Part shown: positions 2,619-18,507 of the stretch, piece by piece | How the letters are laid out: every line of letters starts with the position of its first letter | Numbering within the stretch: position 1 is the first letter of the stretch | From: a virus | Taxonomy: Duplodnaviria; Heunggongvirae; Uroviricota; Caudoviricetes | Length of the DNA stretch: 18,507 nt | IMG/VR virus record: IMGVR_UViG_2778261154_000007 | Location: 1-18,507 of that record | Strand: one strand, 5' to 3' | Made by a program: the position numbers and the translations under genes | The notes under the pieces: generated by a model | What the model saw: the letters and a program-made list of their open reading frames with translations, nothing else | What the model was told of the DNA's origin: nothing | Databases searched by the model: none

Positions 2619-4880
2619 ATGATCAAGTTATCTGAAAAAGGCGTGTTTCTCGCCAGTAATAACGAAATAATTGCCGAAGAACATTTCACCGGCGAAATTA
2701 AAAAAGAAGAAGCCAAAAAAGGCACTATTGCCTGGTCTATTCTCTCTTCTCATAATACGTCCGGAAATATGGATAAACTTAAAATTAAGTTTGATTCATT
2801 AGCCTCTCACGATATTACCTTTGTTGGTATTGTACAGACCGCTAAAGCGTCCGGAATGGAACGTTTCCCGCTGCCGTATGTGCTGACCAACTGCCATAAC
2901 TCACTCTGCGCCGTCGGCGGCACCATTAACGGTGATGACCATGTTTTTGGTTTATCGGCAGCTCAGCGTTATGGCGGTATTTTTGTGCCTCCGCATATTG
3001 CGGTCATCCATCAATATATGCGTGAGATGATGGCAGGCGGCGGCAAAATGATCCTCGGGTCAGACAGCCACACCCGTTACGGTGCATTAGGGACAATGGC
3101 AGTCGGTGAGGGCGGCGGTGAGTTGGTAAAACAGCTGCTTAATGACACCTGGGATATCGACTATCCGGGAGTTGTTGCGGTGCATCTGACCGGAAAACCA
3201 GCGCCGTATGTGGGGCCGCAGGATGTGGCGCTGGCTATCATCGGTGCCGTGTTCAAAAACGGCTACGTCAAAAACAAAGTGATGGAATTCGTAGGTCCCG
3301 GTGTTGCTGCGCTCTCTACCGATTTCCGTAACAGCGTTGACGTTATGACCACTGAAACGACCTGTTTAAGTTCTGTCTGGCAAACCGATGAAGAAGTCCA
3401 TAACTGGCTGGCGCTGCACGGTCGCGGCCAGGATTACTGCCAGCTTAACCCTCAACCGATGGCGTACTACGATGGCTGCATCAGCGTTGATTTAAGCGCC
3501 ATCAAACCAATGATTGCGCTGCCGTTCCACCCGAGCAACGTGTATGAAATCGACACACTGAACCAGAACCTGACCGACATTCTGCGTGAGATTGAAATTG
3601 AGTCCGAACGCGTGGCGCACGGTAAAGCCAAACTCTCGCTGCTGGATAAAGTGGAAAATGGTCGCCTGAAAGTGCAGCAGGGGATTATCGCGGGCTGTTC
3701 TGGCGGTAACTACGAAAACGTCATCGCGGCGGCGAATGCACTGCGCGGTCAATCCTGTGGCAATGACACCTTCTCGCTGGCAGTTTACCCGTCATCACAG
3801 CCGGTGTTTATGGATCTCGCCAAAAAAGGTGTGGTAGCAGATTTGATTGGCGCAGGCGCAATCATCAGAACCGCGTTCTGCGGCCCATGCTTTGGCGCGG
3901 GCGATACGCCAATCAACAACGGATTAAGTATTCGCCACACCACGCGCAACTTCCCGAACCGCGAAGGCTCTAAGCCAGCTAATGGGCAGATGTCAGCGGT
4001 GGCGTTGATGGACGCTCGTTCTATCGCTGCGACTGCGGCAAACGGTGGCTATTTAACCTCTGCCAGCGAACTTGATTGCTGGGACAACGTGCCGGAGTAC
4101 GCCTTCGATGTAACGCCGTATAAAAACCGTGTTTATCAGGGCTTTGTGAAAGGGGCAACTCAGCAACCGCTGATTTACGGACCGAACATTAAAGACTGGC
4201 CGGAATTGGGTGCGCTGACTGACAATATCGTCCTGAAAGTGTGCTCGAAGATCCTCGACGAAGTGACCACCACCGACGAACTGATTCCTTCCGGTGAAAC
4301 CTCTTCTTATCGTTCAAATCCGATTGGTCTGGCGGAGTTTACCCTGTCACGCCGCGATCCCGGTTATGTTGGCAGAAGTAAAGCGACTGCTGAGCTGGAA
4401 AATCAGCGTCTGGCGGGGAATGTCAGCGAGCTGACAGAGGTGTTTGCGCGCATTAAGCAGATTGCTGGTCAGGAGCATATTGATCCGCTGCAAACTGAAA
4501 TTGGCAGCATGGTATATGCGGTGAAACCAGGCGATGGTTCTGCGCGTGAACAGGCGGCGAGCTGCCAGCGTGTGATTGGCGGTCTGGCGAATATTGCCGA
4601 AGAGTACGCGACTAAACGCTACCGTTCTAACGTCATCAACTGGGGGATGTTACCGCTGCAGATGGCGGAAGTGCCAACCTTTGAAGTGGGGGATTACATT
4701 TACATCCCTGGCATTAAAGCGGCGCTGGATAATCCGGGTACGACGTTTAAAGGTTATGTGATCCATGAAGATGCGCCGGTAACGGAAATTACGCTCTATA
4801 TGGAAAGTCTGACTGCTGAAGAGCGCGAGATTATCAAGGCGGGTAGTTTGATTAACTTCAATAAAAACCGTCAGATGTAA
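2619..4880 (+). CDS. ybhJ: Aconitase-family hydratase/dehydratase (753 aa)
   Basis: Track ORF begins at GTG 2595, but ATG 2619 is preceded by GGAG (2608-2611) at good spacing and gives 753 aa. Glycine- and cysteine-containing motifs (GSDSHT, GCSGGN, CGPCFG) are typical of aconitase-family enzymes. Confidence 0.75.
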
Positions 4881-4892
4881 AAAGCGCCATGT

Positions 4893-5006
<114 letters not shown>

Positions 5007-5020
5007 ATAGTTAATTGCTC

Positions 5021-6304
5021 TTACTTCTTCGCCTCTGCAACCACTTTACTACCCACGCCGCGGTTATTGTATTCCCACATGCGGTTGTAGTTAGTGTCAT
5101 TCAGATTGCGCTGTATTTCGTCGTTATCATCTACGCTGCCGGTATTACCCGCAAACGGACGATTAGAGATCACCGCATCGGCCCACGGTTTAGCCGTGTT
5201 AAAACCTTCGTTGATGGCGCTATCACGGATCACCACCTGACCGTTGGTATTGGCATCAACATCCAGCGAGCGGCCCAGTTGCGCCACACCATCACCGAAA
5301 GCATTGAAACGGCTGTTTACGGCGAGGAAACCGTAGTAAATGTTGGACAGCGTAGCCGGTGCAAACACATACGCTTCTTGCTGAGTACGTGAGTTCACCA
5401 CGCGGAATTCGGTGTTATCGAACACCACTGCGCCGCGACCAGAAACGATATCCACATCCCCTTCAATGTAGCTGTTGGTCACCAGCGTACGCGGCTGACG
5501 ATTCGTTTCCAGACGGTTCTGCACACCGCTGTTGGTGACAAAGAAGGTGTTCTGACGACCGAGAATGTTAACGTTGTTAATCTGTACCTGGTCACCATCA
5601 GTACGCAGTGCCACCGCCGGATGGTTACCTGCATCTACGCTATCGCCCAGCGTGTTTTCGATGGTCAGATTTTGCAGTTGCAGGCCATTGTTTTGTGACC
5701 AGAAGACCGCAGAGCAGAGAACACCGATACTGTCGCTGCGTTTGCTCTGGCAGCTATCGTACATATACCACGCTGGTTTACCTGGCATATATTTGCCGCG
5801 CGGGTTGACGTCGTGACGCCAGTCGGCAGGGCTCATGCCACCATCAAGGGAAAGCCCAATCTTCACATCAATCGGTTTTTCACCTGTACCGTACAGAGTA
5901 ATTCCACCCGGAGCGGCAGGGACATATACCGTTCCCTGATACTCACCAGGCATCACGGCAATATACTGGCGCTTGTTGGTACGCTTGATAATTGCCGCAT
6001 CTACCGCCGCCTGAATCGTGGTATGCGTTACACCTTGAGTGCCCGCCGGGCCGACAACAAAGTCAGGTTGCGCAGGCAGGGTAATCGGGGAAGGATTCCA
6101 CGCTGCAGCACCTGGTGTCAGGGATGCAAAATAGTGTTGAGCATCGAAATTCTGCGCTTCTTTTGCCGACAGAATCGGGCGAGAAGAGGTACCAGGCGCG
6201 GTTTGATCAGAAGGACGTTGATCGGGCGGGGTTGAGCTACAGGCGGTCAGCGTCACGCCAAAAGCCAATGCCAGCGCCAGACGGGAAACTGAAAATGTGT
6301 TCAC
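5021..6304 (-). CDS. ybhC: Outer-membrane lipoprotein of the pectinesterase-like / acyl-CoA thioesterase family (427 aa)
   Basis: N-terminal lipoprotein signal with lipobox LTAC (MNTFSVSRLALALAFGVTLTACSS); 427 aa; immediately adjacent to the lambda attB core, as expected for ybhC. Confidence 0.8.
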   Translation of the reverse strand: MNTFSVSRLALALAFGVTLTACSSTPPDQRPSDQTAPGTSSRPILSAKEAQNFDAQHYFASLTPGAAAWNPSPITLPAQPDFVVGPAGTQGVTHTTIQAAVDAAIIKRTNKRQYIAVMPGEYQGTVYVPAAPGGITLYGTGEKPIDVKIGLSLDGGMSPADWRHDVNPRGKYMPGKPAWYMYDSCQSKRSDSIGVLCSAVFWSQNNGLQLQNLTIENTLGDSVDAGNHPAVALRTDGDQVQINNVNILGRQNTFFVTNSGVQNRLETNRQPRTLVTNSYIEGDVDIVSGRGAVVFDNTEFRVVNSRTQQEAYVFAPATLSNIYYGFLAVNSRFNAFGDGVAQLGRSLDVDANTNGQVVIRDSAINEGFNTAKPWADAVISNRPFAGNTGSVDDNDEIQRNLNDTNYNRMWEYNNRGVGSKVVAEAKK

Positions 6305-6340
6305 AGGTTGCTCCGGGCTATGAAATAGAAAAATGAATCC

Positions 6341-6438
6341 GTTGAAGCCTGCTTTTTTATACTAAGTTGGCATTATAAAAAAGCATTGCTTATCAATTTG
6401 TTGCAACGAACAGGTCATTATCAGTCAAAATAAAATCA
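6341..6438. other. Prophage left attachment site attL (host B arm, core GCTTTTTTATACTAA at 6351-6365, phage P' arm with Int arm-type/IHF region)
   Basis: The 15-bp lambda att core is read directly. Downstream sequence gttggcattataaaaaagcattgcttatcaatttgttgcaacgaacaggtcattatcagtcaaaataaaatcattatttg matches the lambda attP P' arm as recalled. Confidence 0.85.
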
Positions 6439-7509
6439 TTATTTGATTTCAATTTTGTCCCACTCCCTGCCTCTGTCATCACGATACTGTGATGCCATGG
6501 TGTCCGACTTGTGCCCGAGAAGATGTTGAGCAAACTTATCGCTTATCTGCTTCTCATAGAGTCTTGCAGACAAACTGCGCAACTCGTGAAAGGTAGGTGG
6601 ATCCCCTTCGAAGGAAAGACCTGATGCTTTTCGTGCGCGCATAAAATACCTTGATACTGTGCCGGATGAAAGCGGTTCACGACGAGTAGATGCAATTATG
6701 GTTTCTCCGCCAAGAATCTCTTTGCATTTATCAAGTGTTTCCTTCATTGATATCCCGAGAGCATCAACATGCAATGTTGTAGGGATGGCAATTTTTACGC
6801 CTGTTTTGCTTTGCTCGACATAAAGATATCCATCTACGATATCAGACCACTTCATTTCGCATAAATCACCAACTCGTTGCCCGGTAACAACAGCCAGTTC
6901 CATTGCAAGTCTGAGCCAACATGGTGATGATTCTGCTGCTTGATAAATTTTCAGGTATTCGTCAGCCGTAAGTCTTGATCTCCTTACCTCTGATTTTGCT
7001 GCGCGAGTGGCAGCGACCGGGTTTGTTGTTATATGGCCTTCAGCTATTGCCTCTCGGAATGCATCGCTCAGTGTTGATCTGATTAACTTGGCTGATGCCG
7101 CCTTGCCCTCGTCTATGTATCCATTGAGCATTGCCGCAATTTCTTTTGTGGTGATGTCTTCAAGTGGAGCATCAGGCAGCCCCCTCCTTATTGCTTTAAT
7201 TTTGCTCATGTAATTTATGAGTGTCTTCTGCTTGATTCCTCTGCTGGCGAGGATTTTTTCGTAGCGATCAAGCCATGAATGTAACGTAACAGAATTATCA
7301 CTGTTGATTCTCGCTGTCAGAGGCTTGTGTTTGTGTCCTGAAAATAACTCAATGTTGGCCTGTATAGCTTCAGTGATTGCGATTCGCCTGTCTCGGCCTA
7401 ATCCAAACTCTTTACCCGTCCTTGGGTCCCTGTAGCAGTAATATCCATTGTTTCTTATATAAAGGTTAGGGGGTAAATCCCGGCGCTCATGACTTCGCCT
7501 TCTTCCCAT
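6439..7509 (-). CDS. int: Lambda-type tyrosine integrase Int (356 aa)
   Basis: Translation MGRRRSHERRDLPPNLYIRNNGYYCYRDPRTGKEFGLGRDRR... matches lambda Int over its length; 356 aa; adjacent to attL. Confidence 0.95.
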   Translation of the reverse strand: MGRRRSHERRDLPPNLYIRNNGYYCYRDPRTGKEFGLGRDRRIAITEAIQANIELFSGHKHKPLTARINSDNSVTLHSWLDRYEKILASRGIKQKTLINYMSKIKAIRRGLPDAPLEDITTKEIAAMLNGYIDEGKAASAKLIRSTLSDAFREAIAEGHITTNPVAATRAAKSEVRRSRLTADEYLKIYQAAESSPCWLRLAMELAVVTGQRVGDLCEMKWSDIVDGYLYVEQSKTGVKIAIPTTLHVDALGISMKETLDKCKEILGGETIIASTRREPLSSGTVSRYFMRARKASGLSFEGDPPTFHELRSLSARLYEKQISDKFAQHLLGHKSDTMASQYRDDRGREWDKIEIK

Positions 7510-7705
7510 TTCTGATCCTCTTCAAAAGGCTACCTGTTACTGGTCGATTTAAGTCAACCTTTACCGCTGATTCGTGGAACAAATACTCTCTTCCATCCTT
7601 AACCGGAGGAGGGAATATCCTGCACTCGCGTACCCATCGACGAACTGTTTCAAGGCTCCTTGGGCGTCGCTGGCGTGCGTTCCACTCCTGAAGTGTCAAG
7701 TACAT
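7487..7705 (-). CDS. xis: Excisionase Xis (72 aa)
   Basis: Translation MYLTLQEWNARQRRPRSLETVRRWVRECRIFPPPVKDGREYLFHESAVKVDLNRPVTGSLLKRIRNGKKAKS matches lambda Xis; 23-nt overlap with int as in lambda. Confidence 0.95.
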   Translation of the reverse strand: MYLTLQEWNARQRRPRSLETVRRWVRECRIFPPPVKDGREYLFHESAVKVDLNRPVTGSLLKRIRNGKKAKS

Positions 7706-7759
7706 CGCAAAGTCTCCGCAATTACTCGCAAGGGAGCGAGTATTGGTTTATTTTCTCCA

Positions 7760-7783
7760 ACAAAAAAGGAGCCGAAGCTCCTT
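7760..7783 (-). terminator. Candidate rho-independent terminator downstream of the 207-aa AntA-like gene
   Basis: On the minus strand: GGAGCTTCGGCTCC hairpin (plus 7768-7781) followed by TTTTTTG. Confidence 0.5.
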
Positions 7784-7789
7784 TGATGA

Positions 7790-8413
7790 TTAAAATTCGA
7801 ATTGTCTCGCCCGAAGGCTTTTCAGCATTGGTTTTGCCCGTTCGAAAAGGGCGCTTGCTTGGTCAAGTCGTGTCGCCTCCCTTAGCAGTACATCTCTGTT
7901 TTTCGTCACCGTGTAAAAAGTTTCAAACGCGATGTCATACAGCTTGCTCGTGTATGATGAGTTCAGTTCCTTCAATATCGGGTACAGACGTTTGCAGATG
8001 TCCTGCGCATTCTCCATCTGTACCTGCATATAGCAAAGGAGGATGATTTCTTCGTCTGTGAATTGCTGCGCTGGTTGCATGCTGCGAAGTTTCTTTTCGC
8101 ACTCGATGAAGTATCGGCGTATCTGGCGGCCTTTTTCGTTACGCTCGACCATCGCCGTTTCTTTGGCTGTATCGAGGGTGAGGTGATAGTCTTTGCTACG
8201 GCGATCGCCTCCTCGACCTTTGATTTCCCGATTTGGGGAAACCAAAATATAGTCCTGATTTTCAACGAAACCATATTCAGCAATGCGTTCTGTAATCCAC
8301 GATGCAAAGCGTTTACCTACCCCAAGAAAAGTATGTAAATCACGGGCATTAACGAGAAGAGTTGTTTCGTTGGATATAGTGCCGTTGAATACGGGGATGA
8401 GTTGACTGGTCAT
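7790..8413 (-). CDS. Phage antirepressor-like protein (AntA/AntB N-terminal domain-like), 207 aa
   Basis: N-terminal segment ISNETTLLVNARDLHTFLGVGKRFASWITERIAEYGFVENQDYI resembles AntA/AntB-type antirepressor domains; located in the b2-proximal accessory region next to xis. Confidence 0.55.
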   Translation of the reverse strand: MTSQLIPVFNGTISNETTLLVNARDLHTFLGVGKRFASWITERIAEYGFVENQDYILVSPNREIKGRGGDRRSKDYHLTLDTAKETAMVERNEKGRQIRRYFIECEKKLRSMQPAQQFTDEEIILLCYMQVQMENAQDICKRLYPILKELNSSYTSKLYDIAFETFYTVTKNRDVLLREATRLDQASALFERAKPMLKSLRARQFEF

Positions 8414-8734
8414 TTTTATGTCCTTTGCATTTGTTCAGATAGCCCTGTGTTCAGCAGGGCGGTCAGGTACTTGAACACCGTGCAAAGTCGGCCCGTATCC
8501 TTAACCTTTCGGCTGTTTTTCGGTATACGCGCTACCCGACCATATCTGAAAAATGGACATAAAAAATCCGCATGACTGACGGGTGCGGTTTCCGCTTTGC
8601 AAGGTGTGTTCAGCACCATGAAGCGGAATATAGCCCCGTTAATGCGGTGTTGTCAAATCATGTAGGCCTTATCTTGCTGTAAGCCGCGCCATTCGGGCTT
8701 TTCCCCACATTTGGGGAAAACTATCTTGTCAAAA

Positions 8735-9517
8735 TCATGCAGCCTTTCGCCCTCCTTCGATGAGTTCCTCTATTTTGTGCACTCCAGCCTCGTTGTACCG
8801 AAATGTTTCAACCTGCTTGTCATTGTGCGCCGATTTGTCGATGAACCACTTCCCGTACTTTTCTGTTTTGAGCATGTAGGTGTTGGCTATGCGTCCTACC
8901 TTGTTGGCTGAAATACCGTAGCGCTGGCCGACTTCCGTAGCAGAGTAGTAGTGCTCTGAGATAGCTGGCAGAGGTACAACATCGCGACCAACAATCGGGT
9001 TGAACACTCCAGCTACTGCTGCCTGCTTTGATTCTGAGGACAGATTCGGGAACATATTCACCAGTCGATCCGCCACGTTCAAAGCTATTTCCATGGCTCG
9101 CGCACGGTCTAGGCTACTTTCTGGTTGCGGTACTGGTTGAGGATGGTTGGCAACCTTTTCGCGCTGATTGAAGTAGCCGTCCTCCAGTTTTTCGAACACG
9201 TCCCATGCCTGATCCGTTTCGAGCATCTTCGCGTGACGGGCGGCTCCGCGCTCTGTCCAGAGGATGAGGTGGCGTGCATTTGGGGCAATTTTCACAAAGT
9301 AGTTTAAAGCTACTTTGTGTTTTAGCGCGCGCAGCTCGTCACCAACGACCTTGTAGAAGTGTACCCCCTCAACAAAGCGCGACTTGTTTTCATGATGGTT
9401 TTGCCGGATGCGCACAACATCCGTTCCGTACAACTGCGCCAATAGTTCGCTGGTGATGACGTTGGTTTGTTTGTAGGTGATTGGTGAAAGTGTTTCAACA
9501 GAAATTTGAGCATTCAT
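8735..9517 (-). CDS. Phage regulatory/antirepressor-family protein (ORF6N/Rha-like N-terminal domain), 260 aa
   Basis: N-terminal TSELLAQLYGTDVVRIRQNHHENKSRFVEGVHFYKV resembles ORF6N/Rha-type domains; the C-terminal half is unrelated. Confidence 0.5.
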   Translation of the reverse strand: MNAQISVETLSPITYKQTNVITSELLAQLYGTDVVRIRQNHHENKSRFVEGVHFYKVVGDELRALKHKVALNYFVKIAPNARHLILWTERGAARHAKMLETDQAWDVFEKLEDGYFNQREKVANHPQPVPQPESSLDRARAMEIALNVADRLVNMFPNLSSESKQAAVAGVFNPIVGRDVVPLPAISEHYYSATEVGQRYGISANKVGRIANTYMLKTEKYGKWFIDKSAHNDKQVETFRYNEAGVHKIEELIEGGRKAA

Positions 9518-9641
9518 AGCGTCCTCACATTGGCTTTTGCATTGAAGAAAGCTTGACGGTGAACTCGCCGTAACGAGTTCAGATAAAAGAAATCCCCGCG
9601 AGTGCGAGGATTGTTATTTACCTTTGACGGCAAGTTGCAGG

Positions 9642-10172
9642 TTAGCCACGGTTAACCTCCTGCGGCGGTTCTGGTAGCTGCATCCAGTGGGTTACCTCTT
9701 TGAGATACAGGTCTTCGCCATCACCGTCATCCCAAGTGGGATTGCCATCATTAAACCAGTCGCCATATACGCCGACCTGAGTGTTGGGGATGTTTGGTGG
9801 GTAGTTGTTTTTAAAGTCAGCTGCTAACACATAGCATTGTCGCTCTCCCATTTCTGGCATTCGCTCACTACAGCTTATCCAGGCATCCGGAGTTACCGGC
9901 ACTGGCTGGGCGGTATAAAGCGGTGTTATATCTGCCCGAAAATTACATGCTTTATGCAGCCGCACCCACCGTTCGACTTCTGCTTTGTCAGAATACATAC
10001 CAGTGAACGTGTTATATTCACGGTCAATTTGCGTGAAGGTTACCTTCCACGCCACCGGCTCTGCTGTCAGCGATGCCAGAGCAATTTCATAAGCACGGCG
10101 TTCAACATTGTCTCGCACATCCAAACTGCTGATACGCTCTTTGATTTCTTTAATCAGTTCTTTGTCGTTCAC
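9642..10172 (-). CDS. DUF551-like phage protein, 176 aa (GTG start)
   Basis: C-terminal W-rich segment WISCSERMPE...VTHWMQLPEPP resembles the DUF551 domain common in lambdoid early-left regions. Confidence 0.5.
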   Translation of the reverse strand: MNDKELIKEIKERISSLDVRDNVERRAYEIALASLTAEPVAWKVTFTQIDREYNTFTGMYSDKAEVERWVRLHKACNFRADITPLYTAQPVPVTPDAWISCSERMPEMGERQCYVLAADFKNNYPPNIPNTQVGVYGDWFNDGNPTWDDGDGEDLYLKEVTHWMQLPEPPQEVNRG

Positions 10173-10252
10173 TTATGCCTCCGATTCCCGGATGTCACCC
10201 AAATCAACGCTACAATGCCAACCAGTGCAACGAGCGCAAAACTATCAAGCAT
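10169..10252 (-). CDS. Putative 27-aa hydrophobic peptide ([27 protein letters not shown])
   Basis: ATG preceded by AAGAGG; single predicted TM helix; its TGA overlaps the GTG start of the downstream gene (GTGA) and its ATG overlaps the stop of the upstream gene. Confidence 0.3.
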   Translation of the reverse strand: MLDSFALVALVGIVALIWVTSGNRRHK

Positions 10253-10748
10253 CTCCAACCTCTTTAACGGTAACTGTCTGTGCCTCCAGTTCTGCTATGC
10301 GCTTTTCTGAGGCTTCAAGTAACGCCTGCTTATCGCGTAGCGCTTCTTCCAGTTCAGCAACATGGCATTCACTATCAATAAGGTTGTTCTCTGCTGCTTC
10401 CAGCTCAACACGCAACTTCCCTACCGTTAGCGCAATTTCCTCGTTCTCCTGATCGCGGCTTTTGATGTATTGCAGGTTTCTTTCCCGTTCATCCAGTAGT
10501 GCCAGCGCAACATTTGGATTAAAAGCAGCAATAAATTCAGCGTTTGCATAAGCCTGAACATCTGTTTCAACCAGGCAGTTAACATGACATTCCGCAATCA
10601 CACCACCGGGTTCTCCTTTCCATTTTTGACAAACAAAAACTCCTGTTATATTCCCATGCTGATTGCCCGATGTATGCCCTACGATGTAGCTCCCTTTCGT
10701 TGCCTTTTCTGCCGCATCACGCAGTGCCTGGTAATTAATTTTGCTCAC
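10245..10748 (-). CDS. Ead/Ea22-like phage protein with C-terminal coiled coil
   Basis: Start placed at internal GTG 10748, preceded by AAAGGAGG at 6 nt, rather than the track GTG at 10769. Sequence [18 protein letters not shown]... resembles ead/Ea22-like family; C-terminal heptad-rich region. Confidence 0.5.
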
Positions 10749-10912
10749 TGTTTGCCTCCTTTGCGCCACATCGCATTCAGATATTTGTTTTGATTTACTG
10801 ACGGAAAAGAATTTCTCTTAAGCAATTCCTCTCTCGATGGCATTGGCTTTACGCGTTGGCGAATAATCATTTCTGCCGGAAGAATGCCGGGATTGTATGC
10901 AAGTCCTCTCAT
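10745..10912 (-). CDS. Putative 55-aa small ORF, translationally coupled at both ends
   Basis: ATG overlaps the upstream stop (ATGA) and its TGA overlaps the downstream GTG start (GTGA); the Ea22-like RBS AGGAGG lies inside it. Confidence 0.3.
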
Positions 10913-11199
10913 GATTTACTCTCCACGAACTGGTCAACGGCCATGCTAAGTGACACACCTAAAGTCTCGATATGCTGCTGAATATCCTGTAGCGTCCGCG
11001 CCTGAGATAACAGAATTTCACGGTTGCATAACTCTTTAACCAGATGCTCAAACTTGCTGTAATAACCGATACGGCTTAGTGTTTCTTTCCCTGCATTCTC
11101 ACCTTCTTTGATAATTCCTCTTTCACTAAGAATCAGGTCGTGTTTGGTTCCGGTAATAACGTATTTTCCGAGGTCGATGTTTAGCTTCATTGTTTTCAT
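10909..11199 (-). CDS. Hypothetical phage protein (96 aa)
   Basis: Start moved to ATG at 11199 ([11 protein letters not shown]...), preceded by GAGGAA at 6 nt; the longer track ORF lacks an RBS. Confidence 0.45.
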
Positions 11200-11209
11200 T
11201 GTTAATTCC

Positions 11210-11503
11210 TCAGTCATTACTGATAGCGCCATAGCGTGAGCGGTAATTACGCAGGCGCGGGTCAATTTCAGGGAAGTGGGTATATGTGGCTTTGCGGAAT
11301 GGTCGGATTGATGTCTGGTAAATTCGCTCTCGTTCTTCTTTCTCTGCAAGCCATATACAGTGGCGAAATTCCTTTTCCTCTTTCGTTTCCTGCGGTAGCG
11401 ACATTATCCGATCGTAGTTTTTTCTGAATTTATCCAGCACCTCCGATACGGAATTGCCGGAACAGCGGCGCGGGTCATCCGCACCATACAGAGGCGCTGG
11501 CAT
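11210..11503 (-). CDS. Hypothetical phage protein (97 aa), basic
   Basis: ORF in operon context between the Sak4 module and downstream small genes; weak RBS, start uncertain. Confidence 0.4.
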   Translation of the reverse strand: MPAPLYGADDPRRCSGNSVSEVLDKFRKNYDRIMSLPQETKEEKEFRHCIWLAEKEERERIYQTSIRPFRKATYTHFPEIDPRLRNYRSRYGAISND

Positions 11504-11526
11504 AATGGGAGCCTTATTTTCAGTAA

Positions 11527-12114
11527 TCAGAAAGGAGGGTAATCGTTCTGGCTGTAACCATAATCATCTGCATGATTCTGGCTTACGTTTTTAGCGCGAT
11601 TGTCTTTATCTTTGAGGCTGGCAACCATGTTGGCGATAGTTTCTGGTTGCTTGCCTTCCGACTTTTCTTTAAGGGTTTGACCTGTTTGTGCAATAAACGG
11701 GATGCGTATTTCCATCTGGTAGCTGTCTGCGCCAGTCTTTTTGTTTGTGGTTAATACTTTCTGGAGCACTAACCCGATTTTCTTTCCATGAAATTCAGGA
11801 GCAACAAATTTACTGGCGGAAACCATATGTTGCGTTAACTGCTTAATCCCAACACACCCCATCATGGCATGAACGACGTTTGCACCAAACTTGTTTTCCG
11901 TTCCGTCATTTTTCTGAACACAAACGCTAAGATATTGGATTTTACGTCCGTCGTCGGATTCGCCAGAAAGCTCAATAAATTTTGCGCCTTTTTCTGATTG
12001 CTTTAGTTCTGCTTCAGTAATGGTAATGATATGAGCGCCAGTTTCGTTAATAAAACCACCTTGCCCTGCGGTCAGTGCTGCTTCTTCGTTATAAGTAAAA
12101 ATCACGTTGCTCAT
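11527..12114 (-). CDS. Sak4-associated phage protein (possibly DUF669-family recombination accessory protein), 195 aa
   Basis: Start overlaps the Sak4-like stop by 4 nt (translational coupling); the position and size fit the partner gene of Sak4-type modules. Confidence 0.5.
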   Translation of the reverse strand: MSNVIFTYNEEAALTAGQGGFINETGAHIITITEAELKQSEKGAKFIELSGESDDGRKIQYLSVCVQKNDGTENKFGANVVHAMMGCVGIKQLTQHMVSASKFVAPEFHGKKIGLVLQKVLTTNKKTGADSYQMEIRIPFIAQTGQTLKEKSEGKQPETIANMVASLKDKDNRAKNVSQNHADDYGYSQNDYPPF

Positions 12115-12791
12115 GCGGCGTTTTCCTTAATTTGATGAACATTATTGATGCCGTAGTAATCACAAACAGTGGCATCGACGAAAGAGAGATCGTTATCAAT
12201 CTCATTGGAGTCAAACATTCCCATTGGGGATTTAACAGTGTCTGCACCGTTGTTTTTCGTGGTGAAAAAGAACTGGTCATCACGGGTAAGGGTGCGAAGA
12301 ACTATAGTAAACATGCCTTCGACAGTGATTTTCTCGTCCAGCATTTTTCCTATAGTTTTCATTTTCACGCGCCCCATAGGGGTTTCTTCGGTGTGCGCAA
12401 GAAAATAGACTCTCAGGTCATCTGGCGCATCCTGTGCAGCCTTAATCACCTCCCATGCGTGGCGGCCTATCTCAGTAAATTTATCAAACGATTTTTCTTC
12501 TGAGCGGCGCATAAACTCATTGCTCATCACATACTGGAAGTCATCAACAATAACGATTCTTTTCCCGTATTCGTGAGCACGCTTAATTACGGCAACTATT
12601 ACGTCCCATTTATCAGTGGTAACTACGGTTCCTTTTTTTGCTCTGGCATCCCATGCCAGCCAGTCTTTTGATTTAAATGGCAGCGGCTTGCCTATTGGTT
12701 TTATAAGTATTGCTTCCTCTGGATTGATATTTCTCATGCTGGTTGATTTTCCGGTGCCAGACTCACCGAGTATTAATGTCGCAGTTCCCAT
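12111..12791 (-). CDS. Sak4-like RecA-fold P-loop ATPase (phage single-strand annealing/recombination protein), 226 aa
   Basis: N-terminal Walker A GESGTGKS and Walker B-like hhhhDD (RIVIVDD); size and position in the early-left operon where lambda carries exo/bet. Confidence 0.7.
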   Translation of the reverse strand: MGTATLILGESGTGKSTSMRNINPEEAILIKPIGKPLPFKSKDWLAWDARAKKGTVVTTDKWDVIVAVIKRAHEYGKRIVIVDDFQYVMSNEFMRRSEEKSFDKFTEIGRHAWEVIKAAQDAPDDLRVYFLAHTEETPMGRVKMKTIGKMLDEKITVEGMFTIVLRTLTRDDQFFFTTKNNGADTVKSPMGMFDSNEIDNDLSFVDATVCDYYGINNVHQIKENAA

Positions 12792-12799
12792 AATTTGCC

Positions 12800-12988
12800 T
12801 CAGAATGGTAATTCGGATGGGGAGGAAAGAAACTCGCGCTCATTCATGCGCTCTCTTTGTGCCTGCCATAAACAAAGTTGTTTCTTTGATTTATCTCCCG
12901 CTTTACGCCAGTAACGAGCCTCAGCAATGTGATATTCTCTTTTTAATCGACTTAACTCTGGAGTTTTCGCCAGCTCTACCGGAATCAT
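12800..12988 (-). CDS. Hypothetical small phage protein (62 aa)
   Basis: Start set to second ATG (MIPVELAK...), which is preceded by GGAGG at 5 nt; overlaps the end of the kil-like ORF. Confidence 0.35.
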   Translation of the reverse strand: MIPVELAKTPELSRLKREYHIAEARYWRKAGDKSKKQLCLWQAQRERMNEREFLSSPSELPF

Positions 12989-13098
12989 TTTGACCTCCAT
13001 TTTTTATAGGCTTCGACGGCTTCACGAAACATCTTTTCATCGCCAATAAAAGTGGCGATAGTGAATTTAGTCTGGATAGCCATAAGTGTTTTATCCAT
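12985..13098 (-). CDS. kil: Kil-like small protein (37 aa) at the kil position downstream of cIII
   Basis: ATG overlaps the cIII stop region; translation MDKTLMAIQTKFTIATFIGDEKMFREAVEAYKKWRSK; position and overlap as for lambda kil. Not in the track as a separate ORF (below 60 aa). Confidence 0.45.
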   Translation of the reverse strand: MDKTLMAIQTKFTIATFIGDEKMFREAVEAYKKWRSK

Positions 13099-13231
13099 TT
13101 TTGGGAACTCCTGGCTGATTAAGTACGTCGATGAGTCGTTTCCATCCGTCACGTAATTTACGGGTGATTCGTTCAAGTAAAGATTCGGAAGGGCAGCCAG
13201 CAACAGGCCACCCTGCAATGGCATATTGCAT
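13091..13231 (-). CDS. cIII: cIII (FtsH inhibitor / CII stabiliser), 46 aa
   Basis: Manual translation of the minus strand: MQYAIAGWPVAGCPSESLLERITRKLRDGWKRLIDVLNQPGVPKNG, matching lambda CIII through its conserved central helix; RBS AGGAG upstream. Not in the track (below 60 aa). Confidence 0.8.
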   Translation of the reverse strand: MQYAIAGWPVAGCPSESLLERITRKLRDGWKRLIDVLNQPGVPKNG

Positions 13232-13264
13232 GGTGTGCTCCTTATTTACGCTTTAAATTGCTCC

Positions 13265-13292
13265 GTGTATTCACTCGTTGGAATGAATACAC
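13265..13292 (-). promoter_or_regulatory. 9-bp stem hairpin (GTGTATTCA-N10-TGAATACAC) in the leader upstream of cIII
   Basis: Read directly; no T-tract follows on either strand, so not an intrinsic terminator. Lies between the 207-aa gene stop and the cIII RBS. Confidence 0.35.
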
Positions 13293-13336
13293 AGTGCAGT
13301 GTTTATTCTGTTGTTTATGCCAAAAATAAAGACCAA

Positions 13337-13960
13337 CTATGCGGCCTCGGAAGGAAGTCCAATCATCTTATTCAAATCTTCTACCCGTAAAGCAGGAAGT
13401 GCTGTACTTGCTTTATCTGCTTCTTTTGGTAGCAATTCTTTGCTTTCAGGCCAAACTTCAATAAGTCGCTTAACTGTTGTGACTGAGTTCAAAGCAGCCC
13501 ATACATTTGATTCGATATCCTTTTTCCTGGCTTTAAGTTTTTGTTGCAATGCGCAGATTTCATCAAACCTTTTTGTTATTTCGTGTTCTGCGCTAAACAT
13601 GCATTTATCTCTGGTCGGAGTAGGGAGCAATATATCTTCGCCGTTGCCGTCTTTCCCATATGAATACCATCCAACCCTTCTGCCAGATACAGTCAGATAA
13701 ATTGAAGTAGAACGAACATCGCATGAGTAAAATGAACATCCCATCTTTTCAAGTTCTTCACTTATAGCTACCAACTTGGATGATAACTGATCCACTTCCT
13801 CAGTTTTCTTCTTCCCGCCAAACGCAACAACTCTGGCGTCAAGTGCAAGCTGGTTCTTTAGCTTTGTTACTTCTTCAAGTTCAGTGAACACCCCGGACTT
13901 AATTAAAGCGTTGCGTGCTATTACTTCTTTTATTCTCGTTGTTAAGCGGATTGATGACAT
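13337..13960 (-). CDS. Hypothetical protein of unknown function (207 aa) in the N-cIII accessory slot
   Basis: Start moved to ATG 13960 (MSSIRLTT...), preceded by GAGG; no TM segments, predicted helical/coiled regions; no motif I recognise. Confidence 0.55.
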   Translation of the reverse strand: MSSIRLTTRIKEVIARNALIKSGVFTELEEVTKLKNQLALDARVVAFGGKKKTEEVDQLSSKLVAISEELEKMGCSFYSCDVRSTSIYLTVSGRRVGWYSYGKDGNGEDILLPTPTRDKCMFSAEHEITKRFDEICALQQKLKARKKDIESNVWAALNSVTTVKRLIEVWPESKELLPKEADKASTALPALRVEDLNKMIGLPSEAA

Positions 13961-13971
13961 ATTAATTCCTC

Positions 13972-14298
13972 TCAAATAAGTGGTTTGCTGCCTGATTTCA
14001 TTTTCTGGCGACCAACACAAGTCACACCCATTTCACTGCGTGGCTTGCTGTACCATGTGCGCTGATTCTTGCGCTCAATACGTTGCAGGTTGCTTTCAAT
14101 CTGTTCGTGGTATTCAGCCAGCACCGTAAGGTCTATCGGATTCAGTGCGCTTTCTACTCGTGATTTCGGTTTGCGATTCAGCGAGAGAATAGGGCGGTTA
14201 ACTGGTTTTGCGCTTACCCCAACCAACAGGGGATTTGCTGCTTTCCATTTAGCCTGTTTCTCTGCGCGACGTTCGCGGCGGCGTGTTTGTACATCCAT
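13972..14298 (-). CDS. N: Antitermination protein N (108 aa) with arginine-rich motif
   Basis: Translation from ATG 14298 (RBS AGGAG): MDVQTRRRERRAEKQAKWKAANPLLVGVSAKPVNRPILSLNRKPKSRVESALNPIDLTVLAEYHEQIESNLQRIERKNQRTWYSKP... matches lambda N; the track ORF extends spuriously upstream. Confidence 0.9.
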   Translation of the reverse strand: MDVQTRRRERRAEKQAKWKAANPLLVGVSAKPVNRPILSLNRKPKSRVESALNPIDLTVLAEYHEQIESNLQRIERKNQRTWYSKPRSEMGVTCVGRQKMKSGSKPLI

Positions 14299-14455
14299 CT
14301 GGATTCTCCTGTCAGTTAGCTTTGGTTGTGTGTGGGAGTCGTAGTCCTGAACGAAAACACCCCGCAATGGCACATTGGCAGCTAATCCGGATTCGCACTT
14401 CCGGCCAATGCTTCGTTTCGTATCACACACACCAAAGCCTTCTGCTTTGAATGCT

Positions 14456-14485
14456 GCCCTTCTTCAGGGCTTAATTTTTAAGAGC
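14456..14485 (-). promoter_or_regulatory. nutL (boxB GCCCTGAAGAAGGGC; boxA-like TGCTCTTA)
   Basis: Minus-strand sequence gctcttaaaaattaagccctgaagaagggc; boxB is a perfect hairpin identical to lambda nutL boxB. Confidence 0.8.
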
Positions 14486-14518
14486 ATCACCTTTATGGTG
14501 GTCAGTGCGTCCTGTTGA

Positions 14519-14590
14519 TGTGCTTAGCATCACCGCCAGTGGTATTTATGTCAACACCGCCAGAGATAATTTATCACCGCAGATGGTTAT
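14519..14590 (-). promoter_or_regulatory. pL promoter with oL1-oL2-oL3 operators (lambda immunity specificity)
   Basis: Three 17-bp sites: cATCACCGCCAGTGGTA (14528-14544), CAACACCGCCAGAGATA (14552-14568), TATCACCGCAGATGGTT (14572-14588); -35 TTGACA and -10 GATGCT on the minus strand with 17-bp spacing. Confidence 0.8.
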
Positions 14591-14737
14591 CTGTATGTTT
14601 TTTATATAGATTTATTTTTTGCCGGGGTGTGTTGCTGGGGTTGGTGATCGAGAGATCAGAATTGCACTGTTTAGTGAGTTGTATCTATTAATTTTAAAAT
14701 AAATACAATTGGTTATGTATTTTTTTGGGGGCGTGAG

Positions 14738-14765
14738 GCAAAGAAAACCCGGCGCTGAGGCCGGG
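14738..14765 (-). terminator. Candidate intrinsic terminator downstream of the rexB-like gene (tIMM-like)
   Basis: Hairpin CCCGGC-GCTGAG-GCCGGG (14748-14765) followed on the minus strand by GTTTTCTTTG. Confidence 0.5.
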
Positions 14766-14768
14766 TTG

Positions 14769-15206
14769 CTATTTGTTTGAGAATTTTAGAAGTTGAAAAA
14801 GTATGATGCTTATATGCATCATTGATGAAGCTGACAGGCCGATCGATAAGGATGGCAACAAGGCAATTGGTTGCTTACTGGTGGCCATTAAAAACAAACC
14901 CATAAAAAAAACAATGCCAAGTTCCGCAAAGGTCAGTGCATACAGAATGATGACAGATGTCATATATCCGTAAGCCTTTACTTTTTGCATGTTTTTTCCT
15001 CTGATGCCGATGACGAATGTCAACGCGGCAATGAGTATTGCGATAGTAGTCCCTGCATATGAAGATATAGCTGCGCCCAGCGCGTCTCTGTGCTCGGTGA
15101 ACGAAATTGATGAGGCAACGCTACGGAAAATGCAGTAGACGACAATAGTTAAAAGTATTGGTAAAACGAATAGCAATACGCCGGGAACGATCCTGTGCTC
15201 TCTCAT
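14769..15206 (-). CDS. rexB: RexB-like integral membrane protein (145 aa, four predicted TM helices)
   Basis: Occupies the rexB position (between pL/oL and rexA, same strand as cI). Four hydrophobic segments (LLFVLPILLTIVVYCIF; TTIAILIAALTFVIGI; YMTSVIILYALTFAELGIVFFMGLFLMA; LSIGLSASSMMHISIILFQLL). Size is close to lambda RexB (about 144 aa). Confidence 0.6.
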   Translation of the reverse strand: MREHRIVPGVLLFVLPILLTIVVYCIFRSVASSISFTEHRDALGAAISSYAGTTIAILIAALTFVIGIRGKNMQKVKAYGYMTSVIILYALTFAELGIVFFMGLFLMATSKQPIALLPSLSIGLSASSMMHISIILFQLLKFSNK

Positions 15207-15236
15207 GCTTCCTCCATCACCCTTAGGTATTCACTC

Positions 15237-16067
15237 TTACTCGTCTTCACAAAAATCTTTATAACTTTTCGTTATGACATTTTTCATTCTTATATAGCAA
15301 ATTTCCATTTCCTCGGCAATTTCTTCATTTGTCGATTTGTAAATGTTGGCGCTGATATGCCCCTTGCTTGAAAGGTAGTAGTCAGTTAACAAATCAGCTG
15401 CGTACTCCTTTGCTTTAAGGTGTATGTCGCTATGAGAATCATCGGCATTACGAATCAGTTCCTTTGACATGTTGCTAATATTTCTCATTCTTTTGGGTTT
15501 TATTGTTATTTCTATACCTTCAAGAAGCTCTTCTTCGATAGTTTCTATCCCGGCGGCCCTCAGTAGAGGAGAAAAAAGCTTGGAGCCAGACTCAACTCTT
15601 AAGGTTGTTCTACCGATGAACTCCATGTCGAGAGCATCATCTCTGGTTACGTCTCTCATCAGAGGTTCTAAACATAGTTTGAATGGATTTGTTATGTTCA
15701 ATTTATTAGATAAGTAAATTTCAAGCTCACGAATTCTTGGCCCGTGTTGAGTGCAGGCGTAACCAACGATGCCATCCTTGATCAACAGGAATGATGGAAA
15801 TGCTAGCGTTTCGTCACTACCTAATACGTTTTTAATTTCATCGACTGATAGTGTGGTTTTATTGACCCTTTTAACCAAGTCTGAGTCGTATGTTTTTGTT
15901 ATTAAATAACATTCTCTGCTGATGTGATGAGCGAATATAAAGTAATCATCAATCTCTAAGGCATTATTTTTTGCTTTGATTACCTGTTCGGATAAGCCTG
16001 ACACCAAATCAATAGGGAAACGTTCCTTACCGTTTTGTTGATAGAAAGCGTAAAAATTAAGTTTCAT
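15237..16067 (-). CDS. rexA: RexA-like soluble protein (276 aa), partner of the membrane protein
   Basis: Occupies the rexA position immediately downstream of cI on the same strand. Size is close to lambda RexA (about 279 aa); conserved-looking blocks FPSFLL, LEPLMRDVTRDD, FIGRTTLRVE, YYLSSKGH, EEIAEEMEICYIRMK. Appears much more divergent from lambda than the flanking cI and N. Confidence 0.6.
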   Translation of the reverse strand: MKLNFYAFYQQNGKERFPIDLVSGLSEQVIKAKNNALEIDDYFIFAHHISRECYLITKTYDSDLVKRVNKTTLSVDEIKNVLGSDETLAFPSFLLIKDGIVGYACTQHGPRIRELEIYLSNKLNITNPFKLCLEPLMRDVTRDDALDMEFIGRTTLRVESGSKLFSPLLRAAGIETIEEELLEGIEITIKPKRMRNISNMSKELIRNADDSHSDIHLKAKEYAADLLTDYYLSSKGHISANIYKSTNEEIAEEMEICYIRMKNVITKSYKDFCEDE

Positions 16068-16198
16068 ATATCAATCCGTTATATCTGGCGTAAGTCATCA
16101 TATCGTTAAAGTACATAAAATTTCTTTTTGCGTTGATGTAATGAATGGCAGCTTGAAAACCTGCTGGTAATCCTACGCCCGGAGCACTTTTCCATCCA

Positions 16199-16915
<717 letters not shown>

Positions 16916-16919
16916 TTAA

Positions 16920-17000
16920 ATCTATCACCGCAAGGGATAAATATCTAACACCGTGCGTGTTGACCATTTTACCTCTAGCGGTGATAATGGTTGCATGTAC
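16920..17000. promoter_or_regulatory. oR3-oR2-oR1 operators with divergent pRM and pR promoters
   Basis: TATCACCGCAAGGGATA (oR3, 16923-16939), TAACACCGTGCGTGTTG (oR2, 16946-16962), TACCTCTAGCGGTGATA (oR1, 16970-16986); pR -35 TTGACC and -10 GATAAT; cro RBS TAAGGAGG. Confidence 0.85.
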
Positions 17001-17003
17001 TAA

Positions 17004-17213
<210 letters not shown>

Positions 17214-17224
17214 ATAACCCCGCT

Positions 17225-17300
17225 CTTACACATTCCAGCCCTGAAAAAGGGCATCAAATTAAACCACACCTATGGTGTATGTATTTATTTGCATGCATTC
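17225..17300 (+). promoter_or_regulatory. nutR (boxA CGCTCTTAC, boxB GCCCTGAAAAAGGGC) followed by the tR1 region
   Basis: ccccgctcttacacattccagccctgaaaaagggc read directly; boxB is a perfect hairpin. Confidence 0.75.
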
Positions 17301-17331
17301 AATCAATTGTTATCTAAGGAAATACTTACAT

Positions 17332-17628
17332 ATGGTTCGTGCAAACAAACGCAACGAGGCTCTACGAATCGAGAGTGCGTTGCTTAACAAAATCGCAATG
17401 CTTGGAACTGAGAAGACAGCGGAAGCTGTGGGAGTTGATAAGTCGCAGATCAGCAGGTGGAAGAGGGATTGGATTCCAAAGTTCTCAATGCTGCTTGCTG
17501 TTCTTGAATGGGGCGTCGTTGACGACGATATGGCTCGATTGGCACGACAAGTTGCTTCGATTCTCACCAATAAAAAACGCCCGGTGTGCAAGACCGAGCG
17601 TTCTGATCAAATACAGATGGAATTCTGA
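17332..17628 (+). CDS. cII: CII transcriptional activator (98 aa)
   Basis: Start at ATG 17332 (RBS TAAGGA), not the track start 17272; MVRANKRNEALRIESALLNKIAMLGTEKTAEAVGVDKSQISRWKRDWIPKFSMLLAVLEWGVVDDDMARLARQVA... matches lambda CII. Confidence 0.9.
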   Translation: MVRANKRNEALRIESALLNKIAMLGTEKTAEAVGVDKSQISRWKRDWIPKFSMLLAVLEWGVVDDDMARLARQVASILTNKKRPVCKTERSDQIQMEF

Positions 17629-17660
17629 GGGAATTACTGGATCAATCCACAGGAGTCATT

Positions 17661-18419
17661 ATGACAAATACAGCAAAAATACTCAACTTCGGCAGAGGTA
17701 ACTTTGCCGAACAGGAGCTAAGAGTGGCTGATATCGATGATGGTTACACCAGATTCGCTAACGAGCTGCTGGAAGCTATCGCAAGTGCCGATTTAACCGC
17801 TCGCCAGTTGAAAGTTATGCTGGCCTACGTCCGGAAAACATATGGATTCAATAAGAAAACAGATCGAATAGCCGATGAGCAAATTGCTCAGTTAACAGGA
17901 CTATCAAGGCAGAATGTTAACAAGGCTAAAAAAGAACTGATTTCAATGAATTGCCTGTTTATGGATGGAAATCAAATCGGTGTAAACAGGGAGGTATCTG
18001 CGTGGCAATTCAGCAAGTGTCTCCAAGTTAGCAACTTTGTCTCGAAGTTAGAGACAAAAAATGTCTCCAAATTAGAGACACTCAATGTCTCGAAGTTAGA
18101 GACACACAAAAGACATTCTTTAAAGACAAAAGAAAATATTAATAAACCCCCTATATCCCCCAAAAAAGTTTCTCAGAAGTTCGACCCGCTAGAAACAGAG
18201 TTGCCTGATTGGTTATCAGCAGAAACATGGTTGTCGTGGGTTACCTATCGCAAGGAGATAGGTAAGTCGATCAAGTCTAAGCAAAGCGTCACTCAGGCTA
18301 TCAACGTTCTAAGCAGAAGTCTGGAGAAGGGATATACACCTGAAGAAATTATAAACCAGAGCATCGCCAGTGGTTGGCAGGGGATTTTTGAGCCCAAGAC
18401 TCCAAAGGGGAAATCTTGA
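17661..18419 (+). CDS. O: Replication initiator O-like protein (252 aa) with lambda-like N terminus and divergent iteron-binding and C-terminal regions
   Basis: N terminus MTNTAKILNFGRGNFAEQE resembles lambda O; 33-nt spacing from cII as in lambda; the gene contains the iteron array; shorter than lambda O (about 299 aa as I recall). Confidence 0.75.
   Translation: MTNTAKILNFGRGNFAEQELRVADIDDGYTRFANELLEAIASADLTARQLKVMLAYVRKTYGFNKKTDRIADEQIAQLTGLSRQNVNKAKKELISMNCLFMDGNQIGVNREVSAWQFSKCLQVSNFVSKLETKNVSKLETLNVSKLETHKRHSLKTKENINKPPISPKKVSQKFDPLETELPDWLSAETWLSWVTYRKEIGKSIKSKQSVTQAINVLSRSLEKGYTPEEIINQSIASGWQGIFEPKTPKGKS
18018..18150. repeat. Replication origin iterons inside O: four ~19-bp repeats TGTCTC(C/G)AA(G/A)TTAGAGACA plus an AT-rich tract
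   Basis: Repeats at 18018-18035 (degenerate), 18038-18056, 18062-18080, 18086-18104 with 24-bp periodicity; each is an inverted repeat TGTCTC...GAGACA; AT-rich 18120-18145. Confidence 0.7.
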
Positions 18420-18507
18420 ACCGCCCCGGGTTTCCTGGAGAGTGTTTTATCTGTGAACTCAGGCTGCCAGATCATCGTTTCCGATGGAAGCATAATAAGC
18501 TTTTTCT

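Follow-up and report, generated by a model that had tools for sequence, protein, structure and literature searches.

Evidence for an HK620-type Sak4 recombination module in the place of Red in a lambda-like prophage

Which recombination system stands in the left operon of a lambda-like prophage that lacks Red, and does the lack of Gam leave the DNA of such a phage exposed to the host RecBCD enzyme? The question is raised by a stretch of viral DNA of 18,507 nucleotides, analysed here at its full length and called the window, for which the initial annotation described a P-loop ATPase of 226 residues and a coupled partner of 195 residues in the position where lambda encodes exo, bet and gam. Both ORFs, their 4-nt overlap, the Walker A motif GESGTGKS and the Walker B motif IVIVDD were recovered where that annotation had placed them (Table 1). 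Combining homology searches, comparison of gene neighbourhoods and published experiments, we conclude that positions 11210-12988 of the minus strand very probably constitute an HK620-type Rec module, hkaM-sak4-ssb-abc2, in a lambda-like prophage inserted at att-lambda beside ybhC; transcription of the module presumably starts at pL and relies on N antitermination. The locus is already known and the near-identical Sak4/SSB pair of HK620 has been characterised, and what the window presents is an ordinary module swap with nothing new in it.

A four-gene module in the slot of Red

The backbone of the prophage, of which the window shows just the left arm, is of the lambda type, with int/xis at att-lambda, a lambda-like N and a Rex immunity region. 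A megablast search of positions 11150-13250 against the phage collection aligned this segment with positions 4147-6202 of HK620 (NC_002730) over 2056 bp at 97.6% DNA identity, and the matched region of HK620 covers hkaJ, hkaK, hkaL, hkaM, kil and cIII. The order and the spacing of hkaM-sak4-ssb-abc2 are the same as in HK620, and the proteins are identical to those of HK620 at 99.6% (Sak4), 96.9% (SSB), 96.9% (Abc2) and 98.4% (HkaM) of their residues. Because abc2 lies 23 nt downstream of ssb and hkaM 8 nt upstream of sak4, the unit consists of four genes and not of the pair alone; the module swap that had been proposed inside a lambda-type left operon was confirmed in its location, the gam-bet-exo slot, and had to be enlarged in its content. 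The PHROG and Pfam assignments of the module proteins agree with each other, and NCBIfam returned no match for any of six module and flanking proteins. The first gene of the module encodes an orphan protein which differs from HkaM by the single change V56S, matches phrog_1723 (E 2e-33) and has no match in Pfam or NCBIfam; HkaM itself has been described as an orphan without homology to the Arf protein of P22 (PMC5928155). An Nmad5 gene is found upstream, and a DUF5405 gene downstream where HK620 has hkaH. At least 80% of the length of the 2.1-kb segment is covered in 64 phage records, including many of Stx-converting phages, and in 180 of the 5426 complete E. coli genomes.

Table 1. Positions of the module, its motifs and the surrounding features in the window
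Feature	Position	Strand	Description
host ybhC	5021-6304		host gene
lambda-like stretch	6351-7732		attL/int/xis, 98.3%
int	6439-7509		lambda-type
lambda-like stretch	10392-10510		within ea22
HK620-like mosaic segment	11196..13248		reaches from just beyond abc2 to shortly before cIII begins; blastn 97.6% to HK620 4147-6202
abc2 (hkaJ)	11210..11503	-	97 aa, anti-RecBCD protein 2
ssb (hkaK, SSB_HK620, 'SSB-2')	11527..12114	-	195 aa, single-strand DNA-binding protein, cognate Sak4 partner
SSB tail NDYPPF	11530..11547	-	C-terminal, identical to HK620 tail
ATGA junction	12111..12114	-	sak4 TGA and ssb ATG overlap by 4 nt
sak4 (hkaL)	12111..12791	-	226 aa, P-loop protein
Walker B IVIVDD	12540..12557	-	Sak4 residues 79-84, read from sequence
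Walker A GESGTGKS	12744..12767	-	Sak4 residues 9-16, read from sequence
hkaM	12800..12988	-	62 aa, orphan, first module gene, sits where P22 has arf
kil	12985-13098		upstream of module in transcription direction
lambda-like stretch	12996-13248		kil-cIII, 96.4%; sole lambda-like part of the HK620-like segment
cIII	13091-13231		upstream of module; N further upstream
lambda-like stretch	13257-13340
lambda-like stretch	13997-14848		N, nutL, pL, 89%

The absence of the lambda recombination genes, which had been noted from the ORF list, was confirmed by two kinds of searches. When lambda Exo, Bet and Gam were compared by tblastn with all six frames of the window, the best E values were 1.1, 0.20 and 0.11, respectively, and Pfam scans of all substantial left-operon ORFs between int and N detected neither Exo (PF09588-type), RecT/Bet, Erf nor Gam (PF06064), so that these searches found no homologue of exo or bet elsewhere in the operon either. 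The boundaries of the replacement were located by a blastn comparison of the window with positions 27500-36000 of lambda, which gave similarity in five places (Table 1). Leftwards of 12996, homology to lambda resumes only inside ea22. In lambda, gam overlaps the end of kil, and position 12996 is where gam begins in that phage. Since the homology to lambda ends there, the gam-bet-exo block has been replaced from position 12995 leftwards and the boundary of the swap is the kil/gam junction. A scan of positions 10700-14700 gave no promoter-like site, a result which fits read-through transcription from pL; the same scan revealed on the minus strand terminator-like sites at 13348-13329 and 12203-12186, neither of them obviously meaningful.

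A module found in a prophage may also be an unexpressed relic of a defective element that has no present function. The window does begin with the end of an IS2 element and a truncated ybhH, the copy of the same prophage in strain VL40, where a NinB gene is present, has been broken up by IS elements, and the left arm alone is visible here. Against these signs of decay stand the four ORFs of the module, which are intact and whose products share 97-99.6% of their residues with the proteins of a viable phage, and the genes int, xis, N, cI, cro, cII and O, which are intact in the window too. We consider a decayed relic very improbable and reject this explanation on that evidence.

The Sak4 ATPase and its SSB partner

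The assignment of the P-loop protein to the Sak4 type, proposed in the initial annotation, is now well founded. The protein matches phrog_2872 'Sak4-like ssDNA annealing protein' with an E value of 3.9e-108 over profile positions 1-218 of 219, and it shares 225 of its 226 residues with HkaL of HK620, the only change being E43D. It is 100% identical to Sak4 of phage JEP4, and 99.1% identical, among the matches listed, to the proteins of Stx1a- and Stx2a-converting phages, two groups which make up 58 matching records. Aligned with 10 Sak4 homologues of distant phages (27-71% identical), it shows residues S11, G14 and K15 of Walker A and D83 of Walker B to be invariant, with G9, G12 and D84 nearly so. 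The length of 226 residues fits a RecA/Rad51 protein reduced to its core. The family of Sak4 phage recombinases, as Lopes et al. reportedly described it in 2010, has just such a core-only RecA/Rad51 fold, without the N- or C-terminal domains of RecA. Biochemically, Sak4 has been defined as an ATP-dependent single-strand annealing protein made of the RecA core only (PMC5928155).

Structural searches with the protein itself gave little. Its single-sequence AlphaFold model had a pLDDT of 44.7, too poor for use; a sequence search of the PDB returned no match, and a PDB search with a profile built on its phage homologues returned generic P-loop proteins at non-significant E values of 0.013 or worse. 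An hhalign comparison of the Sak4 profile with E. coli RecA reached a probability of 10% and aligned the region from Walker A to Walker B alone. The RecA-like fold would thus be attributed to this Sak4 by analogy, on the basis of PMC5928155 and of Lopes 2010.

These structural results, together with the Pfam matches, which lie just above threshold and concern two broad models (AAA_24, 30.2 bits; AAA_22, 27.7 bits), are what could be put forward for a generic ATPase, of replication, packaging or other function, with an unrelated gene as neighbour. Such a reading has to face the 99.6% identity to a protein for which ATP-dependent annealing and recombineering activity were shown, the location of the gene between kil and abc2, within the slot of the Rec module, and a pairing with an SSB gene that is kept across phyla; we give it hardly any weight and reject it. 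A role in a defence system is not indicated for either protein, since PADLOC gave for Sak4 a trivial P-loop match to mad8 (E 2.3e-05) with no stretch passing alone, and nothing for the SSB.

The partner, for which a DUF669 or SSB-like identity had been guessed, turned out to be the cognate SSB. It matches phrog_743 'single strand DNA binding protein' (E 1.5e-65) and differs from HkaK of HK620 by 6 substitutions, none of which falls in the NDYPPF tail; its C-terminus, ...ADDYGYSQNDYPPF, is the same as that of HK620. The two PHROG matches and the DNA identity to HK620 establish that the pair are not chance ORFs. In the copy of Pfam used, hmmscan returned no family for the SSB, and no match to DUF669 even at E values up to 10, whereas RefSeq names the gene at the identical position 'DUF669 domain-containing', and HkaK has been equated with DUF669 in the literature (PMC5928155). 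This mismatch is a discrepancy between annotation sources, and the identity with HkaK is not weakened by it. As to an OB-fold or a kinship with bacterial SSB, the single-sequence AlphaFold model of the SSB was unusable, with a pLDDT of 34.5, and the PDB contained no match to this protein by sequence search or by a profile of its phage homologues.

The two genes overlap by an ATGA in which the stop codon of sak4 and the start codon of ssb are fused, the sequence of the junction on the minus strand being ...GCCGCATGAGC...; the same overlap is found in HK620 (hkaL 5065-5745, hkaK 4481-5068) and in Hafnia phage Meifeng, and it suggests that sak4 and ssb are translationally coupled. The association is also found at larger distances. 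The comparison covered nine remote sak4 loci with 24-70% identity, which belong to phages of Hafnia, Acinetobacter, Pseudomonas, Shewanella, Aeromonas, Anaerostipes, Fusobacterium, Dinoroseobacter and Bacteroides. With the exception of the Fusobacterium and Bacteroides phages, which leaves seven loci, the gene directly 3' of sak4 encodes a product of about 200-270 aa that can be aligned with the SSB of the window (19-52% identical). An acidic motif ending in PF was found at or beside the C-terminus in five of these seven other partners (DDLPF, DDIPFD, SDLPF, EEIPFN), and the partner in Hafnia phage Meifeng carries the looser DENFF. Reportedly, about 80% of sak4 genes have an ssb-like neighbour.

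The recombineering test that the initial annotation had called for has already been published (Hutinet et al. 2018, PMC5928155), with the HK620 proteins, from which the pair in the window differs at 1 and 6 positions. Purified HK620 Sak4 was found to bind ssDNA and to anneal complementary strands, and it did so with ATP only (PMC5928155). In oligonucleotide recombineering, sak4 alone increased recombination 15-fold, and sak4 together with ssb, or the whole module, about 210-fold, while nothing was added by ssb alone or by abc2 with sak4 (PMC5928155). The role of the tail was shown by the mutant SSB Delta6, from which the last six residues, NDYPPF, had been removed: recombineering fell about 10-fold and the binding of Sak4 to SSB-coated ssDNA was abolished (PMC5928155). 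The same study found that HK620 Sak4 neither performs strand exchange in vitro nor helps RecA, and that Sak4 and SSB together gave only a low level of recombination after conjugation (PMC5928155).

Abc2 and the host RecBCD enzyme

The gene immediately downstream of the pair, missed in the initial annotation, bears directly on the second half of our question, as no Gam-like RecBCD inhibitor had been seen in the window. Its product matches Pfam PF11043 'Bacteriophage P22 anti-RecBCD protein 2' over the whole profile (positions 1-97 of 97; E 6.1e-64; 212.7 bits for a cutoff of 25) and phrog_656 'abc2 anti-RecBCD' (E 2.6e-55), and it differs from HkaJ of HK620 by two substitutions and a deletion of one residue. 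A search of the PDB matched it with the P22 Abc2 protein seen on RecBCD (8B1T chain A; 8B1U) at an E value of 2.2e-58 and about 92% identity, the latter figure representing 89 of 97 residues counted on the printed alignment. P68, the residue of Abc2 that is engaged by the host PpiB (PMC9836394), is conserved. Structural work located the binding site of Abc2 on RecC and indicated that RecBCD is co-opted rather than blocked; the authors, Wilkinson et al., support in this way the model of Murphy, in which RecBCD, hijacked by Abc2, supplies the phage recombinase with ssDNA (PMC9836394). The near-same Abc2 accompanies Erf, a Rad52-like protein, in P22, and Sak4, described as RecA-like, with a dedicated SSB here.

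The presence of abc2 directly downstream removes the basis of the reading that this phage has no countermeasure to RecBCD and of the consequences that had been drawn from the lack of Gam. A two-gene system of Sak4 and partner, in which linear DNA would be exposed to RecBCD or Chi-dependent, is in agreement with the negative tblastn and Pfam searches for Gam, but it is refuted by a full-length abc2 in the same operon, sits badly with a prophage part that contains no Chi, and receives practically no credence from us. That the prophage portion of the window has no Chi site also fits the Chi avoidance reported for phages that encode Abc2, though weakly, since just 0.44 site is expected in the whole window.

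From these elements, a scenario in four steps can be proposed for the module. Abc2 would bind RecC of the host RecBCD, so that the enzyme would ignore Chi and become an end-resecting nuclease and helicase of the phage. The phage SSB would then coat the resulting ssDNA, or that of replication forks. Its NDYPPF tail would recruit Sak4, with ATP held by Walker A and Walker B, to the coated ssDNA, and complementary strands would be annealed. The outcome would be recombination of the phage, probably with formation of concatemers for packaging. The absence of both a phage exonuclease and Gam would be explained by resection being carried out by the Abc2-modified RecBCD (PMC5928155, PMC12315714), and the Rec modules of P22 and HK620 were both described as lacking a nuclease by Zheng et al. 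2025 (PMC12315714). Coating by the SSB and recruitment of Sak4 were shown for proteins 97-99.6% identical to those considered here (PMC5928155), and binding of Abc2 to RecC for a protein about 92% identical (PMC9836394); by analogy, the same properties may be expected of the proteins of the window. The passage of DNA from Abc2-modified RecBCD to Sak4 and its SSB is what we infer from this arrangement. Against the scenario stand the low recombination after conjugation, the lack of strand exchange in vitro and the null result with abc2 and sak4 in the oligonucleotide assay; as that assay requires no end resection, its null result does not bear on this hand-off.

A more speculative possibility, which we regard as rather unlikely, is that Abc2 acts as an adaptor indifferent to the recombinase, delivering the ssDNA unwound by RecBCD not to the annealing protein but to the SSB of the phage or an accessory protein such as HkaM. 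The published assay with abc2 and sak4 could not detect such a role. If Abc2 did act in this way, the module would constitute a natural test case for reprogramming RecBCD to load a protein other than RecA.

Comparison with known recombination modules

The window is a clean case of lambdoid mosaicism, in which a lambda-type backbone of int, xis, N, kil and cIII carries an HK620-type Rec module in the place of Red. Swaps of this kind have already been catalogued: Bobay et al. 2013 classed lambdoid phages by their recombinase, Sak4 included, and by their RecBCD inhibitor, Gam or Abc2 (PMC3784561), and Zheng et al. 2025 described 34 combinations of sequence types and 13 functional types of Rec modules, between which shuffling is frequent (PMC12315714). 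The value of the present case lies mainly in its correct annotation. It also illustrates that a phage without Gam may still have an anti-RecBCD function, and that Abc2, GamL and MuGam need to be checked before conclusions are drawn about RecBCD.

The closest relative is the Rec module of HK620 itself (NC_002730 4161-5942; Hutinet et al. 2018, PMC5928155), which has the same four genes in the same order, the same ATGA overlap, the same Walker motifs and the same NDYPPF tail. The same module is also carried by HK629, JEP4, APC_JM3.2, TL-2011a and many Stx1a- and Stx2a-converting phages. What differs is the surrounding genome, which is of the lambda type here, whereas HK620 is a P22-like podovirus. 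The arf-erf-abc1-abc2 module of P22 occupies the same position in the pL operon, encodes an Abc2 about 92% identical and no phage exonuclease, and likewise co-opts RecBCD (PMC9836394, PMC5928155). Its annealing protein is Erf, which has a Rad52-like fold, in the place of Sak4, and neither its Abc1 nor its Arf is related to HkaK or HkaM (PMC5928155).

The gam-bet-exo genes of lambda Red and the present module have no sequence similarity, and yet both stand in the same slot right after kil, both combine single-strand annealing with neutralisation of RecBCD, and both work in oligonucleotide recombineering. They reach this end by different means: lambda supplies a 5'-3' exonuclease of its own and uses Gam to block RecBCD completely, whereas the HK620-type module encodes no nuclease and redirects RecBCD through Abc2, and, unlike that of Red, its annealing protein is an ATP-dependent P-loop protein that needs a dedicated SSB.

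The prophage in VL40 and the host flank

The same prophage is found in E. coli strain VL40 (NZ_CM177011), to which positions 2659-18416 of the window align with 99.9% identity. In that strain, copies of IS2 and IS600 split and invert the prophage, and the replication gene O is broken, whereas in the window the order is un-rearranged and O is intact. On the host side, the first 77 nucleotides (1-77) match at 100% a VL40 sequence lying inside a partial IS2 transposase annotation, and the adjoining host gene ybhH lacks about the first 95 positions of the PrpF-family profile; an IS appears to have truncated ybhH.

Features discussed in the text, with strand and supporting match or label
Feature	Position	Strand	Match or label
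ybhH (PrpF family), host gene	160-927	+	profile match minus about the first 95 positions
Chi octamer, host part	1568-1575	-	
Antirepressor-like gene	7790-8413	-	AntA + P22_AR_C
Antirepressor-like gene, ORF6N-domain protein	8735-9517	-	ORF6N domain
DUF5405 protein	10909-11190	-	phrog_154, 'replication initiation protein'
SSB (HkaK-like, 195 aa)	11527-12114	-	
HkaM (62 aa)	12800-12988	-	phrog_1723, 'recombinase'
Nmad5-family gene	13337-14020 (13337-13960 with RefSeq-style start)	-	PF18757, E 5e-71
rexB	14769-15206	-	PADLOC RexB model, E 4.1e-54
rexA	15237-16067	-	PADLOC RexA model, E 1.4e-116
cI, S24/LexA-type	16199-16912	-	
O	17661-18419		

Chi sites and annotation labels around the Rec module

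Phages encoding Abc2, the anti-RecBCD protein of the Rec module, have been reported to avoid Chi. The Chi octamer GCTGGTGG does not occur in the approximately 12 kb of prophage DNA (6351-18507), its single copy lying in the host part. This fits the reported avoidance; with an expectation of just 0.44 sites for the whole window, however, the absence lacks significance.

The PHROG labels of HkaM and of the DUF5405 protein, for which no experimental backing was found, look like position-based annotation drift; Hutinet et al. (PMC5928155) described HkaM as an orphan of unknown function. Sources also disagree on the SSB: RefSeq and Hutinet et al. (PMC5928155) name it DUF669, a family of which the current Pfam copy gives no match to this protein even at E up to 10, and in the literature one paper considers it a distant SSB homologue and another denies that it is homologous to bacterial SSB.

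Accessory genes and the comparison with lambda

Between xis and the ea22/DUF551 region lie two antirepressor-like genes (7790-9517, -), and the ORF6N protein encoded by the second gave weak PADLOC matches to PDC-S05, a candidate defence family (E 1.4e-06).

The interval between N and cIII, which in lambda holds ral and ea10, is occupied here by a gene matching 'nucleotide modification associated domain 5'. Its product shares 95% identity with a hypothetical protein of phage mEp235 and has relatives at 25-43% identity in Vibrio, Pseudomonas and Bordetella phages; none of the PADLOC models matched it. The immunity region (14769-16912, -) comprises rexB, rexA and cI, the two Rex proteins being strongly matched by their PADLOC models, and the Rex exclusion system is lambda-style and adjoins a Rec module that is non-lambda.
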